NCBI RefSeq assembly: GCF_039877785.1
Contig: NC_092066.1
Coordinates: forward strand, 5,443,152 to 5,457,892
Direction of reading: 5' to 3'
From: Chaetodon trifascialis
Lineage: Eukaryota
Length of the DNA: 14,741 bases
Position 1 is the stretch's first letter; each line of letters starts with the position of its first letter. The position numbers and the translations under genes were made by a program. The notes under the pieces are model-generated. The model did not search any database. It had not been told where the DNA came from and saw only the letters and a list, made by a program, of their open reading frames with translations. Positions 1,704-10,615 of the stretch are shown piece after piece.

Positions 1704-2160
1704 CCACTTTCCAGATTAGAGTTTATATGAGGAACTAAAGAGCTGAAAAGACAAAGCTAGTGTGACACAAGAGGAAGATAAACCCGAGCCACAACCTGGC
1801 AACCCAGAAACTGTGCTTATTAATGACTGACTGGGAAATCACTGACAAATCAAATTAATAAAGGCTTTTGCCTCATTATAGTTACAAAGTGAAGATCCTT
1901 TATAAAAAGGGATTCACTGTACAAGTGGTACTAAAAATATTAGCGGAATATTATTAGAAAATATCACAACATAAGTGACAGTAACAGAAAAAAGTGGGGA
2001 TAAGGTCACCATGAATGAATTTAAGTCGGAAAATGAAAGCAGGTTAAAAATGCATTTGTGCAGTTCGTTAACATGTACTAATAAAAGCAGCAGTAATTAC
2101 TGCAGGTACCTCCCCTGAGTGGATTTAATTTTCTGCATCACATCTTCTGTTCATTAAGAC

Positions 2161-2188
2161 AAAAAAAAAAGAAGAAGAAGAAAAAAAA
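2161..2188. repeat. A-rich/(GAA)n simple repeat
   Basis: Ten A, then gaagaagaa, then g and eight A. It lies immediately upstream of the CpG-rich block. Confidence 0.9.
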
Positions 2189-2345
2189 GCATGTCAGAGC
2201 AGGCGTGTGCGCGCGCAGCAGAGACAGTGAGCTCGCGGTGCAGAGAGCGCCGCTGTGACAGTGGGAAGCACAATCCGCGTGCAGCCAGCACGAGGCGAAC
2301 ACCTACCAGCGTGCAGTGAGCGATGACTGGACGCAAAACGGTAAG
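2189..2345 (+). promoter_or_regulatory. CpG-rich promoter-like block / candidate 5' exon (possibly bidirectional)
   Basis: About 150 bp with roughly 14 CpG dinucleotides (gcgcgcgc, ctcgcgg, cgccgctg, ccgcgtg, ggcgaac, cagcgtg, gcgatg, gacgcaaaacgg). The flanking kilobases are almost free of CpG. The block ends in an ATG at 2323 with a purine at -3, followed 18 nt later by a gtaaga splice donor. On the minus strand there is an ATG at 2336 followed after 30 nt by a gtaggt donor. Orientation is therefore ambiguous. Confidence 0.4.
2323..2340 (+). CDS. candidate first coding exon (ATG ACT GGA CGC AAA ACG | gtaagag), product unknown
   Basis: ATG in an acceptable Kozak context (gagcgATGa), followed after 6 codons by a GTAAGA donor at 2341. 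A 42-codon upstream ORF runs 2191-2319 and ends just before this ATG. I see no homology. Eighteen nucleotides are too few to test coding statistics. Confidence 0.2.
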
Positions 2346-2576
2346 AGCAGCGCTGCAAACGTTGCCTCACTCAGCTTTTAATGCCTTTTAGATGGGAAAA
2401 AGCTGTAAGCTGAAATGTTGTAATGAAGACTTACGGAGACGTTACCACGAGATTTATGTTGAGTTTTATTTGTAAGTTTGAAGAAAATGCAGACTCTGTA
2501 TTTACAGTGTTCAGTTAGATCTCCTCAAAAATCTGCTTAAATTGCTGTTCCTTTCTCTAAGCAATGAGAGTAATGG

Positions 2577-2596
2577 AAAAAAAAAAAAAAAAAAAG
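2577..2596. repeat. poly(A) homopolymer (20 nt)
   Basis: An uninterrupted A run. It may be the tail of a retroposed element, or a plain homopolymer. Confidence 0.9.
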
Positions 2597-4232
2597 CTAA
2601 GTTCTGAGAAGTGTACATCACTGTTAATGTTAACAGCTGCCTGTAAGCACTCAAAGTGACTCCAGCTGAGACATGAACTATTGTTTGGTGGATGCAGGAT
2701 GTGCAGTAATGCTTTACAACCACTAACTTGTCAAGAGCAGATGATAAATGAGGAAAATTCTCCCTGGATGGAGAGGAAAAGTTGGACAACTCTCCAAACT
2801 GTTGTTAAGAAATGTTATAATCAGATCTAATTTTACCTCTGTATCATGGATTACACAAGAACTTGTTTTGATTGTGCAACGAGGATTTGAGGAAGGCAAT
2901 TTATAGATACGCTGCTCTATACTGTAGTAAACTCTTACCCAAATGGTTCCCTGTGATATTTTTTCCTCTCTTATTACTTATGGGACTCTTCCTTTCCACT
3001 CCTCTGCAGTCCACTGATTTATGTAATGTTGCTGGAATGAAAAGTGCTGCGCAGGGGGTGGAAATCTGGCTTTCTGAGAGTCAAACAGATGAGGAGGCTT
3101 GTTTTAATCATTAGTCTCATGGTATCACTGGCATGGAGCTTGTGCAGGGGAATCATGGTTTGTACTCGCAGGCCTCGGCCGGTGTTCCCATTGCACAGAG
3201 GTGTGTGCAGTGAGCGCTGAATCACTGTTAATTTTACCATTTTCCTTGTTTACTCATATGCATCTGGCTATTAAAGTGGTAATAAACAAGGTTTGTATTG
3301 TTCCAAAAGAAATTACCCTGATATGCCTTTGGGAGGTTGATCAGGTTGTTGATCAATACCAGTGACTCAGCAATTATTTCACCAGATGCTCAGATTGTTT
3401 GTTCAAGTGCTCAGATGGAGCGTGGTGCTACAAGCAAGAGACAGCAGCGAGCCAAGATTCGTTTCGCCCTAAACTATTTGTTTGCCCTGGCAGCGCATGT
3501 TCGCCTGGGTTTCACACCAGGGGAAGAAATAACAAAAGCATTTCAGTTTTAGTGGATTGGATGAATGGGTTTCGTCCATTTGCCACTACACGTATGTGGC
3601 AAAAATGACTAAAAAACAAAGGGTGACATGAGGCCACGTTGCTAGAGAAAGCATCATTTCATAAGGGACACAAATTTTGACGCAACACTTTTGTCCAGTT
3701 TTGCACTTCGGTCCTGACCTTGGAGGCAGTCGTTGAATCAGCTGGGATGAGGTCAAACGCTCCCAAACAAGCGAGTAAGTGGACTTTTAGTTAAAACTGT
3801 TATCTTGAGAAAATAATCTGAGCTCGAGGTTCAATTGCAAGCGTTTTCTGGAGCTTTCAACCCTACAATCTTCATCATTGAATGGAAATTGCTCAGCCAA
3901 CAAAAAGAAGGAGCTATTAGCCGACCTTGAGTTGAGATTATTTTGCCAAACGAACACTACGGTACTTAGCATCCTGAATTACTGCCCCTTTGCTCAGTGG
4001 CTGTGTTGGACCTGTCACTCAGTATCGGCCCACCACATGCTTTCATACACATTAAAGTGATTTCATACCTGGCTGAGGTGAAATAGTTGGCATATCAATA
4101 AAAAAAGATTGATGGAAATACAAATACAACTTCCTCACATTCTTGCCTTATTTCTATCAGCATAACATGGTTCTACTCAAAGGAACAATTTGACATTTTG
4201 GGAAATTGCTGAGGGTTAGGTTAGGAGCTCTG

Positions 4233-4751
4233 TGCCGCTCTCATACCTGCCCAGTAAATATTAAGCTACAACTAGCAGTTGGTTAGCTTTAACAAAGGCT
4301 GGAAAGAGGGGGAAACAGCTGGACACATAAACATTAAAGTGACAATTGGTGGCGTTATAAAGGACTGCATGCTGTACTATTTTGTGGCAAACAGCAGTTT
4401 ATACGTCCTCCCAGCATTTCTATTCATCATCATTGGTCATTCATTGTTGGTTTCCTGGTAACATCTGTATTAATGAATGAATGAATATAAAGCTACAGCC
4501 AGCAGATCGTTAGCTTAGCATAAAGACTGGAAACGGGGGAAACAGCTTGCCTGACTCAGTCTAAAGCTACAAAATCTGACTGCTAACAAATATCCTGATA
4601 AATTAGCTTTAGTGTTGCCAGTTTTTATGTTTGAACTATGGACAGAACCAGGCTAGCTAACAGTTTACACCTGCTTCCAGTCTTTATGCAAAGCTATGCT
4701 AAGCTAATCACCTCCTGGCCCTATGCTGCATGCACAGATATGAGAGTGGTA
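4233..4751 (+). mobile_element. MITE-like nonautonomous DNA element with long TIRs (copy B, carries a duplicated left arm)
   Basis: Left terminus tgccgctctcatacctgcccagtaaatattaagctacaactagcagttggttagc... Right terminus ...gctatgctaagctaatcacctcctggccctatgctgcatgcacagatatgagagtggta. The reverse complement of the right end aligns to the left end (ccactctcatatctg vs ccgctctcatacctg). A second copy of the left arm lies at 4484-4555 (aagctacagccagcagatcgttagcttagcataaagactggaaacgggggaaacagcttgcctgac). The matching right arm is at about 4650-4749. The internal segment 4556-4650 matches the internal segment of copy A (gtctaaagctacaaaatctgac vs gtcttaaagtaacaaaaccctac). Confidence 0.6.
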
Positions 4752-5679
4752 TCAACTCTTGGCAAGAAGCTAATTATTCAAAAAAATGTCAAACCATCCC
4801 TTTAACCAACAAACCCCAAAACTAAAACAACACAAATGGCAGCAGTATGAAAAACGGTGCTTGTAGAAGAAACCTGACATAAGTTAAGTACGTTACATAT
4901 GAGACCTTACGTACATGATACAAGTCATTACTACGTAAGTTATTTATGCACACACATTAAAATAATTGACTTCATTGAAGTCACCTGGCTCTGAGAGTCT
5001 AATAGTGTTGTGGACGGGTTTACATTGAAGTTAGCTCCTGAGTTGGCGCATCTCCCACAGACCCTGAAGGGTACCTTGTGCACTGGTATGAGGTGCCAAG
5101 GTGGCGGGGAACAAAATGCGGGAATTAGAATGATCAGGAAGTTAAATTTTGGGAAAAGTTGGAAACTTTCCAGAGTTACTGGATCTTTCGATGACGTAAT
5201 CTTGTTACGCCCTCTTTGTACTATTTGCATTAAACCAGCTGATGGAAATACCTGTTGAGCCAAACTTTCTTTTGTTGACTTTTTGGAAATGTGATTAAAA
5301 TTTGAGCAATATTCGGATGGACACGACTTATTACTGCAATTCCCACTGGTGGCCGACAGCGGTCATTTAAAGTCATAGCTTACTTACTAATACTCCTTTA
5401 ATACTTGTGTTTACATTACGTAGAACAAGATGACCTAATGTATTTAATTAAGGGCTCAAAGTCAGTGAGAAACTCTGATCATATGGGACGTATTAGTGTT
5501 AGGCAAGAAACAAATTTGCTTTCTCTTACACAAATATTTGTAACCATGTCTTTGAAAAAACAGCCCGGAGTCTGAATTTGTCACATCCGATCTCAAACTA
5601 GTTTGGACTGCTGTTTTATGACAGCGGTGCCTGTGTTCAGAGCGCGCTGATGAAATGGTTCGTCACTTGTTTTTCTCAG

Positions 5680-5846: not shown

Positions 5847-6944
5847 GTAACTGTTTCAACATTGTTTCTGGTGTGTATTAACTGGAGGCCAATGTCTTTT
5901 TAAATCATGTTTACTTGGGAAATTATTTCAAGTCCCAGAACTTTTCTTCTAAGCACAGTCCAGTGAATTAGTGGGATTATAAAAGTTCCAGTTAATACAC
6001 GGAGGGTACTTTATCTGTACATGATGATTATAAACTCCAGATTCTTGCTTCGGGTTATTCTCACAATGCTTCAATGGAAAACAAATGTATTAAAGAAATA
6101 TGTGTGTGTATCTAGATTCTTTGGTTTAGATTTGGTTTCCATTGTATTTGCAGGCGCACCCTTCATCTTCCTGGTTGAGTGATTTGTTGATTCAGTGTTG
6201 GACTGCGGTGAAAGAAATACTCAGATTTATTCATTAAAGCACCACTGCAACTACAAGTTAAAGTAAAGCAGCTATTATTGAAAATGCAAAATGTTAGTCT
6301 GAAAAATAAATGGACCTGTTATGTTCAGCAAAAAATTAAGCAAAAACTTGTCTGAAGTTCATTAATTGATTGGCCAGATAGTTTATTCAGCCTGATATAC
6401 TGACTTTCATCGTTCAATTCAAAGAAAAGCATCAAAGTGTCATAAAAGCCTTGTAGTTACAACTTTTGAGATTTTTTTCACTTCATTTTAAAGCAGTATT
6501 AATCGATTTTTGGCCGCATGGGGACAGTTGAACAATATCTGACATATTAGCACCATTTAAGCTTGATGTGGCGGCTAATTTCTTACACCTATTTACACAT
6601 CCAGCAGATACAGACAACCGTAGCATTCATGTTTTTGGCCACTGGATCAATATTCACTCCCTGTTTAGTTCTGGCCTGGTTTCCATCACGTGTTGAGTGA
6701 AATTTCTGGGTCTTAACCTCTATGTTCACCAGCTAGTCGCTAACTGTGTTTGTCTGCTGGTTGGTGATGGTAGCGTTCAGTCGGTTTGTCAGAGCTCTTT
6801 TGCTGAAAACAGCTAACCTGTGTTGATGAGTGCGGTGAGAGTGAAGCAAAATAGTAAAATCGTGGGTTGAACAACCAAAATAATGATTCAAAATAGACTA
6901 AAAGACTTCGTAAAGCTGGGACGAACTGCAGAGTTGGTGAGAAT

Positions 6945-7035
6945 CCTCTATGGGTTTGACATATTGTAGTACAATTCAATTGTAGTATAACAAATATGAT
7001 TAGCACAGCTTAGCCTTAGCTTTAGCATTAGCCCA
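6945..7035 (+). mobile_element. probable solo terminal fragment of the same MITE-like family
   Basis: acaaatatgattagcacagcttagccttagctttagcattagcc aligns to the left-arm consensus aaatatcaagttacagccagcagctggttagcgtagcttagcataaag. No matching partner arm lies nearby. Confidence 0.3.
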
Positions 7036-8169
7036 CAGAGATGCATGTCTGCAGGCTAAAGCAGTTTGACAACCTCTTGAACCTACTTCTTGAAGCTTTT
7101 TTCTTCTTGAAAAGTTTACATTCTGGAGGTGAAGACATGAGGCTTTTATAAAGAATAACACAATCAATTAGAAATTAATTTACTTTCAGTTCCTATGAGG
7201 TCTTCAGTGGGAGGTTAAAGTTGCAGCAAAGAGAGGAGAATTTAATTAAATCACTACAGCAGCAATAAACAACATTGTAGCATACATATTGGTGAATAAA
7301 TCTAGCAGCAAAGAGGAACAGTCGTGCTAAATGAGAATATTATTATGTCGGATAAAAAGTATATGTCTTACAGAGCACGTAGTCACAGCCAGTAGTAACA
7401 AAATGTACTGTTTTTACATGAGTTGGTGTTGGGACACGTACACTAAAAAGAGGAGCATAGTGCATGTGGAGGGAGTTGTTGCAATAAAGTTTAAATATTA
7501 TTGCTGGGAGCCACCTAAAACTAACATACAGGCATAACAAATATAGCAGTTAAATTAAAGAGATCTGTCAAGATTAATGACGCCTCGCAGAATCTGTGAA
7601 GCAGACGTACACACAGCTTTGCTCGTTTCATCCGCTCCCACAGGAAAACGAATTTACATTTCAAAGTTTTAGGACAAAAAAAATAAAAAGAGGAACGATT
7701 CAAAGGCTTCAGAGGCCCTGCTGGAAACACAGGTAGAAACGTCTGGTGTGAACTTAAATGAGAGTTTTCAGTGATGCTCAGACAGAAAAGTTTTGTTTTA
7801 GCAGCAACAAGTTAGAATCCCAACCTGGAACAAGTGTACGCTCACAGTATTAATTCAATTTTGAGTAATTTAATAAGCTTTTCTTCCCCCTTACCGAACT
7901 CTCTTGGCTTCTTTCCTGCCCTTCTAATCCCAAATGTATTTGCAATATGACTCCAAAACTTCCACTCACTTTTGGAAAAAAAGCTATTGCTATCTGCTAG
8001 CTGTGGTCTGGCACAAAACTCTGGGCCTCGTTCATGCCTCAGTAGGCCCCCGTCCCCCTTTTAATACAGCATTGTCTCTCCAGCAAGTAAACACATGCAT
8101 CTGTTGTGGTTTGTAGGTTAATCAGTATTGAAGTGCTTGTAATGCAATTGAGATGGTTTACTTCTCAAC

Positions 8170-8550
8170 ATGCAGCGCTTAAGTGTCAGAACGTTGTTTC
8201 AGTCACAGTTTTTAGGATCTCCATTATACACGCCAAGGCTGTCAGGATGGTTCTTCAGAAATGCTTGTCGGATGGTTGAATCGCTCAGAAACACCCTCCT
8301 CCCACAGTTCGATGACAGCGGACGACAGGGGGGCGCCGTGTCAGATGATTTCTGTAACTTTCTGAAACCGCTGATCCGACATTCGCACTTCATGCCGTGT
8401 GAGGCGAGAAGAGAGCCGCCGTTTGAACCTTGTTCATTCTTGACACAACTATTCCTGTCGCTTTTCACGCAAACGGCTTTTTGATTTCCAACAAGGTCGG
8501 ACAACACGTTGAGGGAACCACTTCTGATTGAGCGTAAGCCAACCATAAGA
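8170..8550. promoter_or_regulatory. CpG island-like segment with overlapping 104-aa (+) and 115-aa (-) ORFs; exon, unmethylated regulatory island or young repeat
   Basis: About 25 CpGs in roughly 380 bp (ttcgatgacagcggacgacaggggggcgccgtgtc, accgctgatccgacattcgcacttcatgccgtgtgaggcgagaag, gccgccgtttg, cacgcaaacggc, gtcggacaacacgttgagg), against a background of under 1 CpG per 100 bp. The track shows ORFs 8170-8484 (+) and 8199-8546 (-). Neither peptide matches a family I recognise. Confidence 0.35.
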
Positions 8551-8936
8551 AAGGATTACTGTGTTACTGCACCAACCCAGTCTGTTGAAATTACCTTTAG
8601 CAGCCACTTTATGAGCTTATCTTGTCAGTATCTTGTCATCCTCAGTTACATGTGGCTGTTTCTCACACCAAAGACAATGCTGCTTCATTTATCAGCAAGC
8701 TAACGCCAATAATATTACTAATACTACTAATTAGCCAAGTTACATACCGATATTAAACACTCGCTTTCCCTCTTATTGCCTTCTGTCTCACTCCTCTTTG
8801 TCTATTTTCGTTTGGTATCCTGATTTTATTATTGTTTTTTATGATGGAAATTGCGTCAAAGTCACCAGCATCAGTGCTAGCTGTTAGTGGACTAACACCC
8901 TGCGGACTAAACCATTTGCACCTTTCGGAGCGGCTC

Positions 8937-8958: not shown

Positions 8959-9414
8959 AACACTATCATGCCAATAAATTGCAGATAAAAGCAAACAGCT
9001 CCAGGCCTGTGGGGGGCCCTCGCCATTGTGGCGCTTTAATTCCACTATTACCTTCATTACTACACCCCTGTCTGGTAGTTGTGTAAAATTAATTCCCCCA
9101 TGACATCATATGGAGGAGCGCTGCACGAAGAGCTGGAAAGTGTTGCTTGATATAGTCCCGCTTGATCTATTGGCAGAAATAGTGATGCTTCACCAAATGT
9201 AGGCCATAAAAAACCACGAGATGCAAAACATAATCTATTTTCACAAGGTTTCTCAGACCAAATACCACCCAAAATTTGTTTGGAAAGACACAAGTCAGCA
9301 GCACCCACCACACCAGACTCACTGCATCACAGAAGAGTTTTAACAGGCGTCTTGTGAAGCTGCTCCTATTTCAAGCGGCTGGCAGGCCGAGGAGTCCAAG
9401 CCGAGTCCATAGGC

Positions 9415-9422
9415 GCTGCTCC

Positions 9423-9466
<44 letters not shown>
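9415..9466. repeat. (GCT)n / (CAG)n trinucleotide microsatellite: 14 perfect units at 9424-9465 plus 2 flanking units interrupted by CCG
   Basis: Sequence reads gctgctccggctgctgctgctgctgctgctgctgctgctgctgctgctgctgg. It produces the poly-Cys (+) and poly-Ala (-) ORFs in the track. The other + frames read poly-Ala and poly-Leu. The other - frames read poly-Gln and poly-Ser. Confidence 0.95.
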
Positions 9467-9467
<1 letters not shown>

Positions 9468-9992
9468 CCCTGCTGTATCTGGTTCACGGGCTCTGCTCAC
9501 ACTGTCTTGTGGTTTGGACGGAGCCACTGTCATTTCACAGGAATTTCCTGCCATCTGCGCTCAGTCAAAGTTTCTCACAGATCCACACCTGCTTGTAAAT
9601 GTTTAGGTTTGCCAGGAGGAGAGGACGGAGGGCTAGGTGAGCGCTGATGGGGGAAGAGGAAGAGATCCGCACGAGCATTTTGGCTTGAGTGTAGAAACAA
9701 TGAAATGTAAGCTCGCTTGTTTGTGAAGGAAATTTGATTTTTATTGAAGACAGCAATTTGCTGATGTTTAGATAGAATGAGGAGATGAGTGTATTCCTGC
9801 ACTCACACTCTTGCAGATATGTGTGCTGTTGTGCATGTCAAAGGTGAAGGAAGTTTTCAGATCCTCTGTTTGAATAGTATAGCTATACAACAATGCAAAA
9901 ATACTCTAACTGAAATACTGACGTTATGGAAAATAATCTTTTTCGTTTTCTTGCTGAGAATTAGATTACATTTATTTAGATGGGAAGATTGA

Positions 9993-10483
9993 TGCCACTT
10001 TCATGTCTGTAAGGTAAATATCAAGTTACAGCCAGCAGCTGGTTAGCGTAGCTTAGCATAAAGAGTGGAAATGAGGTGGAACAGCTAGCCTGACTTTGTC
10101 TTAAAGTAACAAAACCCTACCAGCACCTATAGTGTTCTCTAATCTGCTCGTTTAAGGCGTACGAAACAGTAAATATGGAAATACGTCGTTTTAGAGGAGG
10201 TTAACTGTGTGCTGAACTATTCCTTGGCCAGAAACAGTTTCCAGACAACCAGTGGAGATTCCAGGAAGTTGCAGTGTCTAGCCAGGAAGTCGTCTGGTTC
10301 ATAGCCATCTGCAAAACAACAAAGTGACGTTTTTACACTTTATTGTACAACAAATGAGATATAATGTATTTTAAAGTGTTTTTAGGAGGCTAGCTGTTTC
10401 CTCCTATTTCCAGTCTTTTATGCTAAGCTAAGCTAAGCTAAGCTACCCAGCTGCATATTTACTGTAAAGACATGAGAGTGCTA
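9993..10483 (+). mobile_element. MITE-like nonautonomous DNA element with ~90-bp TIRs (copy A)
   Basis: Left arm at 9993-10094: tgccactttcatgtctgtaaggtaaatatcaagttacagccagcagctggttagcgtagcttagcataaagagtggaaatgaggtggaacagctagcctgac. Right arm at 10388-10483: ggctagctgtttcctcctatttccagtcttttatgctaagctaagctaagctaagctacccagctgcatatttactgtaaagacatgagagtgcta. The reverse complement of the right end, agcactctcatgtctttacagtaaatatgcagctg, aligns to the left end. An internal unique segment of about 295 bp lies between the arms. No clear target-site duplication is visible. Confidence 0.65.
10422..10446. repeat. (GCTAA)n pentanucleotide microsatellite, expanded inside the right TIR of MITE copy A
   Basis: gctaagctaagctaagctaagctac. 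The corresponding site in the other arms carries only one or two units (ttagcgtagcttagc, ttagcttagc). Confidence 0.9.
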
Positions 10484-10593
10484 TACATTTTCTCATCTAA
10501 TTCTTTGCAAAGGAAATAAGTGTAATTCCCAAAATGTTGATCTTTTTACTTCAGTAATAAGCAAATTGAACATTATGGAGCCCACAAAAGTTG

Positions 10594-10615
10594 TTTTTTT
10601 TTTTTTTTTTTTTTT
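10594..10615. repeat. poly(T) homopolymer (22 nt)
   Basis: An uninterrupted T run about 110 bp downstream of MITE copy A. Confidence 0.9.

Follow-up and report, generated by a model that had tools for sequence, protein, structure and literature searches.

The window, by which we mean the whole 14,741-nt stretch of DNA that was analysed, has a GC content of 41% and a CpG observed/expected ratio of 0.46 with TpG and CpA in excess, and no long ORFs were found in it. In these respects it resembles nuclear DNA of a vertebrate. A short CpG-dense block is located in its 5' part, with an A/GAA-rich tract directly upstream and, towards its downstream end, a short open frame running into a consensus splice donor. 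The features to which the analysis refers are the following.

2124-2129, minus strand: ATTAAA poly(A) signal, about 60 nt past the island edge in the antisense direction
2161-2189, plus strand: A/GAA-rich tract, adjoining the CpG block on its upstream side, read from the sequence
2190-2362, no strand: CpG-dense core (compact CpG island), 173 bp, 18 CpGs, GC 62%, observed/expected 1.09
2191-2319, plus strand: ATG ORF of 42 codons ('uORF'), ending 3 nt before the ATG at 2323, no homologue
2301-2309, minus strand: donor-like CTG|GTAGGT (site 2306), score 8.5, rank 8 on the minus strand, no ATG before it
2323-2340, plus strand: ATG and five codons (MTGRKT), end of putative exon 1, read directly
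2341-2346, plus strand: 5' splice donor GTAAGA, preceded by ACG (ACG|GTAAGA), scoring 8.5 with the matrix and sixth among the plus-strand sites of the 14.7 kb
2341-3009, plus strand: putative intron 1, 669 nt, with further GTAAG at 2405, 2472 and 2643 and A19 at 2577-2595
3010-3200, plus strand: top candidate internal exon, acceptor tcctttccactcctctgcag|, donor GAG|GTGTGT at 3201

The CpG observed/expected ratio, 1.09 in the core, is 0.27 upstream (1700-2160) and 0.44 (2363-2576) and 0.23 (2597-3200) downstream, a local escape from CpG depletion that is directly shown. An initial annotation had placed the densest CpG block of the 5' half of the window at 2161-2345. This 185-bp interval contains 16 CpGs, with a GC content of 0.557 and an observed/expected ratio of 1.16, and the block was found to be the densest of the entire window too. 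The Poisson probability of at least 16 CpGs in 2161-2345, for 3.5 expected, is 1e-6, and the highest CpG count per 185 bp was 18 in the window and 13 in 200 simulations of it by a first-order Markov model. The block is composed of 45 A, 47 C, 61 G and 20 T, with a GC skew of +0.13 on the plus strand. Direct reading confirmed that it lacks a TATA box, and none of the promoter motifs Sp1, NRF1, ETS, ZNF143 and TCTCGCGAGA was recognised when the block was searched by eye.

The thresholds of Gardiner-Garden and Frommer (at least 200 bp, GC at least 50%, observed/expected at least 0.6) are reached by 2201-2400, with a GC content of 0.58, 18 CpGs and an observed/expected ratio of 1.07, but in length only barely, because the dense core is just 173 bp. 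The block falls short of a CpG island as defined by Takai and Jones (at least 500 bp, GC at least 55%, observed/expected at least 0.65); the GC content over the 300 bp of 2101-2400 is 0.51, and CpG density is at background outside 2190-2362. Blocks with at least 16 CpGs per 185 bp occurred 8 times in 402 kb of comparable DNA, that is about 20 per Mb, which would be of the order of the gene (promoter) density of compact fish genomes. The keeping of CpGs in an otherwise CpG-depleted genome implies a block that is germline-unmethylated, young, or under selection.

The A/GAA tract, also correctly reported by the initial annotation, may be an upstream boundary that excludes nucleosomes or resembles a W-box; it might instead be an A-rich target site. 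A repeat scan paired it with the T-rich stretch at 1669-1703 and with A19 at 2577-2595. We observed homopolymer-rich tracts at 1669-1703 (T-rich, 35 nt), 2577-2595 (A19) and 10594-10615 (T22); counting the A/GAA tract, three of the four such tracts of the window lie within 1 kb of the CpG block.

Sequence copies, RNA genes and the rest of the window

Palindromic MITE-like repeats with the core GCTTAGCATAAAGACTGGAA, of a type that would suggest a teleost source, are located at about 4450-4816 and at 9843-10568. Exact copies of the 20-nt MITE core number more than 120 in metagenome contigs, those of MDSQ01, MDSP01, MDSO01 and one JGI marine sample, which shows that those metagenomes include host (fish-like) DNA. 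The contigs of MDSQ01, MDSP01 and MDSO01 are like the window in GC content (40%) and in CpG depletion (0.39). BLAST of the block against 402 kb of such DNA, made up of 120 metagenome contigs with the MITE core of the window, returned no copies, a result that excludes high copy number only, provided that this DNA is from related species; if a family had 10,000 copies per 700-Mb genome, about 6 would be expected in 402 kb. Self-BLAST gave no copies of the block elsewhere in the 14.7-kb window, and a 23-mer of the block had 0 matches in metagenomes.

A known RNA gene in the block was rejected. No Rfam family was found in the whole window even at E ≤ 1, the segment 2050-2700 gave nothing credible at E ≤ 10, with sub-threshold noise only, and ARAGORN found no tRNA genes in the window. 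The predicted RNA fold of the block is ordinary, with z-scores of -1.5 (plus strand) and -0.2 (minus strand). A box C/D snoRNA was considered within the putative intron, at 2449-2523 on the plus strand, where a perfect 5-bp terminal stem accompanies an imperfect C box; this candidate was discarded, as it has no CUGA D box by the terminal stem and its scores are below the gathering thresholds (SNORD102, 21 bits for a threshold of 47; SNORD11, 18 bits for a threshold of 55). A tandem structure of GTGCAG...GAGCG motifs within the block was likewise dismissed, none being detected by Tandem Repeats Finder.

The CpGs might have been kept simply because they are recent. The segment 2191-2595 would then be a young, low-copy retroposed or transposed fragment, CpG-rich at its 5' end, tailed by A19 and bounded by A-rich target-site duplications, and the block would have no promoter function. 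The A19 tract at 2577-2595 fits such an origin, as do the 10-nt AAAAAAAAGC present on both flanks (2181-2190 and 2588-2597), the A-box-like (2252-2263) and B-box-like (2293-2304) elements noticed by eye 41 nt apart, and the existence, for the second CpG-rich block of the window described below, of a relative in another genome in which the CpGs have decayed to TG/CA. We nevertheless regard this origin as unlikely. No tRNA was found, nor any match to tRNA, 5S, 7SL or snRNA models at E ≤ 10, and neither the window nor the 402 kb sharing its MITE family holds a second copy. The 3' two-thirds of the fragment (2363-2576) are as CpG-depleted as the background (0.44), which argues against a uniformly young insertion. 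There is also no poly(A) signal hexamer within the 40 nt upstream of A19, and the supposed duplication AAAAAAAAGC is of low complexity.

A second CpG-rich block, with 23 CpGs and an observed/expected ratio of 0.97, is present at 8150-8560. Its plus-strand ORF of 110 codons has a weak match (E 1.8e-4) to an ORF on JAMHJM010029317.1 (GCA_028748405.1). Compared as DNA, 8251-8474 and this contig are 67% identical, the CpGs reading TG/CA in the contig, and 6648-6961 is 65% identical to it in the opposite relative orientation; the contig positions listed for the two similarities are 1429-1652 and 4440-4791. No copies of 6648-6961 or 8251-8474 were found in the 402-kb related sample, and the two segments may be conserved non-coding elements or low-copy transposon remnants. 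As sequence of the second CpG-rich block recurs in a contig of another genome, a CpG-rich block in this region need not be a promoter.

Coding potential of the two strands

According to the initial annotation, the block ends in a coding start, MTGRKT, placed before a consensus donor. Both the ATG at 2323 and its codons are indeed there, and the donor at 2341 is present as ACG|GTAAGAG, but the coding role is not supported. Unspliced, the frame from the ATG encodes 22 aa; spliced to the acceptor at 3010, it gives 40 aa (MTGRKT and 34 further residues) followed by a stop. For the protein searches, stop-to-stop ORFs were masked for low complexity, concatenated and compared with 5.8 billion proteins, without a positive control. 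In this comparison plus-strand ORFs of at least 40 aa had no match at E ≤ 0.01, plus-strand ORFs of 22-39 aa downstream of 2341 had none at E ≤ 0.1, and none was obtained for minus-strand ORFs of at least 52 aa or for all those of at least 30 aa in 1-2450. Pfam assigned no families to the minus-strand ORFs, and an exact look-up of six window ORFs in public assemblies found none on record. The lack of homologues and the stop after 34 codons indicate that MTGRKT is not the visible start of a conserved protein.

It is very unlikely that MTGRKT belongs to a protein-coding first exon, regulated by the uORF and continued by coding exons beyond the window, as the initial annotation had it. In favour of this model, a purine stands at -3 of the ATG at 2323 and a strong phase-0 donor follows; the next coding exons could lie beyond a first intron of more than 12.4 kb. 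Set against this model are the absence of homologues among 5.8 billion proteins for plus-strand ORFs of at least 22 aa from 2341 to the window end, the closing of the frame after 34 codons when it is spliced to the acceptor at 3010, and the fact that none of the candidate ORFs offers a phase-compatible continuation resembling a protein domain. The 42-codon ORF at 2191-2319, proposed as a translationally regulated leader, exists, but nothing singles it out as a regulatory device: the chance of an open frame of 42 codons at the composition of the block, calculated from the base counts, is about 0.3. Being expected from a GC-rich composition, this ORF is uninformative and probably a compositional by-product, and no main ORF was identified downstream of it. 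Four overlapping ORFs of 42-60 codons traverse the block on the two strands.

The frames around a (GCT)17 trinucleotide repeat (9415-9466), which lies in 9300-9600, the segment of the window with the highest GC content (0.56), have no homologues either. The only stringent exon candidate of the minus strand, 9589-9643, adjoins this region.

A divergent transcript, deemed equally possible by the initial annotation, would require the block to be a promoter acting both ways, serving in addition a minus-strand gene whose first exon ends at CTG|GTAGGT (2306). CpG-island promoters commonly initiate in both directions. The annotated minus-strand donor is present at 2309-2301 and equals the plus-strand donor (score 8.5, rank 8), which counts in favour of such a gene. 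The start codon announced at 2336 turned out to be TTG, however, and no minus-strand ATG occurs in 2400-2300. No exon candidate was found on the minus strand below 2300, and the minus-strand ORFs of at least 30 aa in 1-2450 have no homologue. The minus strand also carries no U1-type motif over the next 1 kb and meets the ATTAAA at 2129 about 60 nt beyond the island edge. The block does not qualify as a bidirectional (head-to-head) gene promoter, and of all the readings considered this one is the least probable, to the point of being extremely unlikely.

Splice signals, strand asymmetry and the proposed transcript

Splice sites were scored with crude, approximate 5' splice-site and acceptor matrices. 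On this scale, donors as strong as those at 2341 and 2306 occur about once per 2-2.5 kb on each strand. The acceptor at 3010, 670 nt after the donor at 2341, ranks first among the 830 AG sites downstream of 2360, and the donor at 3201, 191 nt further on, ranks fourth on the plus strand. The segment 3010-3200 that they delimit is the only one on the plus strand that combines an acceptor score of at least 5 with a donor score of at least 8. A pair as strong as 3010/3201 arose in 1.5% of the Markov simulations, a lenient control; such simulations contain fewer pyrimidine tracts than natural sequence does. That these signals are present, and their ranks, are direct observations. In the simplest model that they allow, exon 1 would start in the block and end at 2340, followed by an intron at 2341-3009 and by exon 2 at 3010-3200.

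Inside the candidate exon, on the plus strand, an ATG opens the frame 3089-3200, which encodes MRRLVLIISLMVSLAWSLCRGIMVCTRRPRPVFPLHR and enters the donor at 3201 in phase 1. This peptide is signal-peptide-like, with a charged start, 15 hydrophobic residues and small residues at -3 and -1, and its start reads MRRLVLIISLMVSLAWSLC|RG. Neither a homologue nor a plausible continuing exon was found for it. It could be imagined that the block supplies the promoter and a first, non-coding exon to a spliced gene, unannotated and lineage-specific, with a signal-peptide-like exon 2 (3010-3200), either a young gene for a secreted micro-protein or a lncRNA; we consider this variant rather improbable.

We observed also a split duplicate of 35 nt, whose two halves, 2311-2326 at the end of the CpG block and 2617-2635 in the putative intron, lie 290 nt apart, and which is contiguous in the copy at 3205-3239, just after the donor at 3201 (32 of 35 positions identical). 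No copies of it were found elsewhere in the 402-kb sample. A minus-strand intron at 2616-2327, which would run GT...AG between the two halves, was rejected: its donor (GAT|GTACAC) is poor and it implies a micro-exon of 20 nt. We regard the duplicate as a mutational scar, not a product of splicing; it may have been left by templated-insertion repair.

The two strands differ markedly in signals of the U1 and poly(A) types, an asymmetry that was directly observed. The stretch 2190-3190 has six plus-strand GT[AG]AG motifs, four of them GTAAG, and 1360-2360 has no minus-strand ones, for a window mean of about 1.4 per kb. Past the block, the plus strand first shows a poly(A) hexamer at 3270; in the antisense direction ATTAAA is met at 2129-2124. 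Almada et al. reportedly put forward, in 2013, a model of promoter directionality based on U1 sites and poly(A) signals. Under this model, the asymmetry is the pattern of the productive direction, so the plus strand is favoured. Taken with the GC skew, the plus-strand asymmetries in U1-like sites and poly(A) signals would point to plus-strand transcription. Just upstream of the block, five AATAAA occur within the 740 nt of 1347-2085, all of them on the plus strand; they could mark the 3' end of a plus-strand unit located upstream or simply reflect an A-rich composition.

The explanation that we favour, still tentatively, is that the block is a compact CpG-island promoter for a spliced plus-strand transcript that is probably non-coding. 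In this explanation 2190-2362 would be a short CpG island spared from methylation in the germline and would mark a TATA-less, CpG-type RNA polymerase II promoter. The start site would lie inside the block, just 3' of the A/GAA tract, and the productive run would be on the plus strand. Exon 1 would end at 2340, at the donor ACG|GTAAGA, and would most likely be joined by splicing to the candidate exon 3010-3200. The transcript would probably be non-coding or lineage-specific, with MTGRKT not the start of a conserved protein. Antisense transcription, if any, would be short, as ATTAAA is met at 2129-2124 and U1-type sites are absent on that side. That the block is unmethylated and acts as a promoter, where transcription begins and how the transcript is spliced are all predictions from the sequence. 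Of the candidate promoter and first exon of the initial annotation, the promoter is retained at this predictive level, and a coding exon is not.

Non-methylated islands are a conserved promoter feature of vertebrates, zebrafish included, and mark 64% of the transcription start sites of zebrafish lncRNAs (PMC3583005). Among cold-blooded vertebrates, CpG islands found by computation are often located outside promoters; in zebrafish, predicted islands overlap just 16% of the transcription start sites (PMC3583005). At 173 bp, the block is very short for a promoter island, which counts against the promoter reading.

A possible but somewhat doubtful alternative is that the block is an orphan CpG island, that is, a distal element (an enhancer or a poised Polycomb-type element) in a gene-poor stretch, giving at most an unstable bidirectional RNA, with the ATG and the donor incidental. 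No coding exon was recognisable on either strand of the 14.7 kb, two CpG-rich blocks occur 6 kb apart in the window, and the segments 6648-6961 and 8251-8474, 65-67% identical to a contig of another genome, may be conserved non-coding elements; moreover, 40% of the otherwise unexplained intergenic non-methylated islands of zebrafish bear the enhancer mark H3K4me1 (PMC3583005). On the other hand, the plus-strand cluster of U1-type sites and the strong exon at 3010-3200 would be unexpected for a simple enhancer.

Comparison with known promoters, orphan islands and mobile elements

If the compact CpG-island promoter is correctly predicted, the block would add one more unannotated transcription unit, probably with a lncRNA promoter, to a vertebrate (teleost-like) genome, and strand-asymmetric splice and poly(A) signals would by themselves be enough to pick out very short CpG clusters of cold-blooded vertebrates as candidate promoters. 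The block raises no new principle and no departure from known biology, and its practical value is for annotation only.

SINEs and other LINE-mobilised retroposed units share with the segment 2191-2595 an A19 3' tail, A-rich flanks (possible target-site duplications) and a CpG-rich 5' part. Here, in contrast, no Pol III-derived head and no other copies were found, and CpG retention concerns only the 5' 173 bp. The orphan non-methylated islands of Long et al. 2013 (PMC3583005) resemble the block in being CpG-rich and without nearby recognisable coding exons, a second such block lying 6 kb off in the window. The block differs from them in its strand-asymmetric splice and poly(A) signals and its strong downstream exon, which orphan enhancer islands need not have. 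As for the CpG-island promoters of vertebrates, including those of lncRNA genes, they usually extend over several hundred bp, whereas the block covers about 173-200 bp and has no recognisable transcription-factor motifs or identifiable gene. It is like them in its observed/expected ratio of about 1 in a CpG-depleted genome, its GC-richness, the absence of a TATA box and its positive GC skew, and also in the enrichment of U1 sites on one strand and in a short putative first exon ending in a consensus donor.
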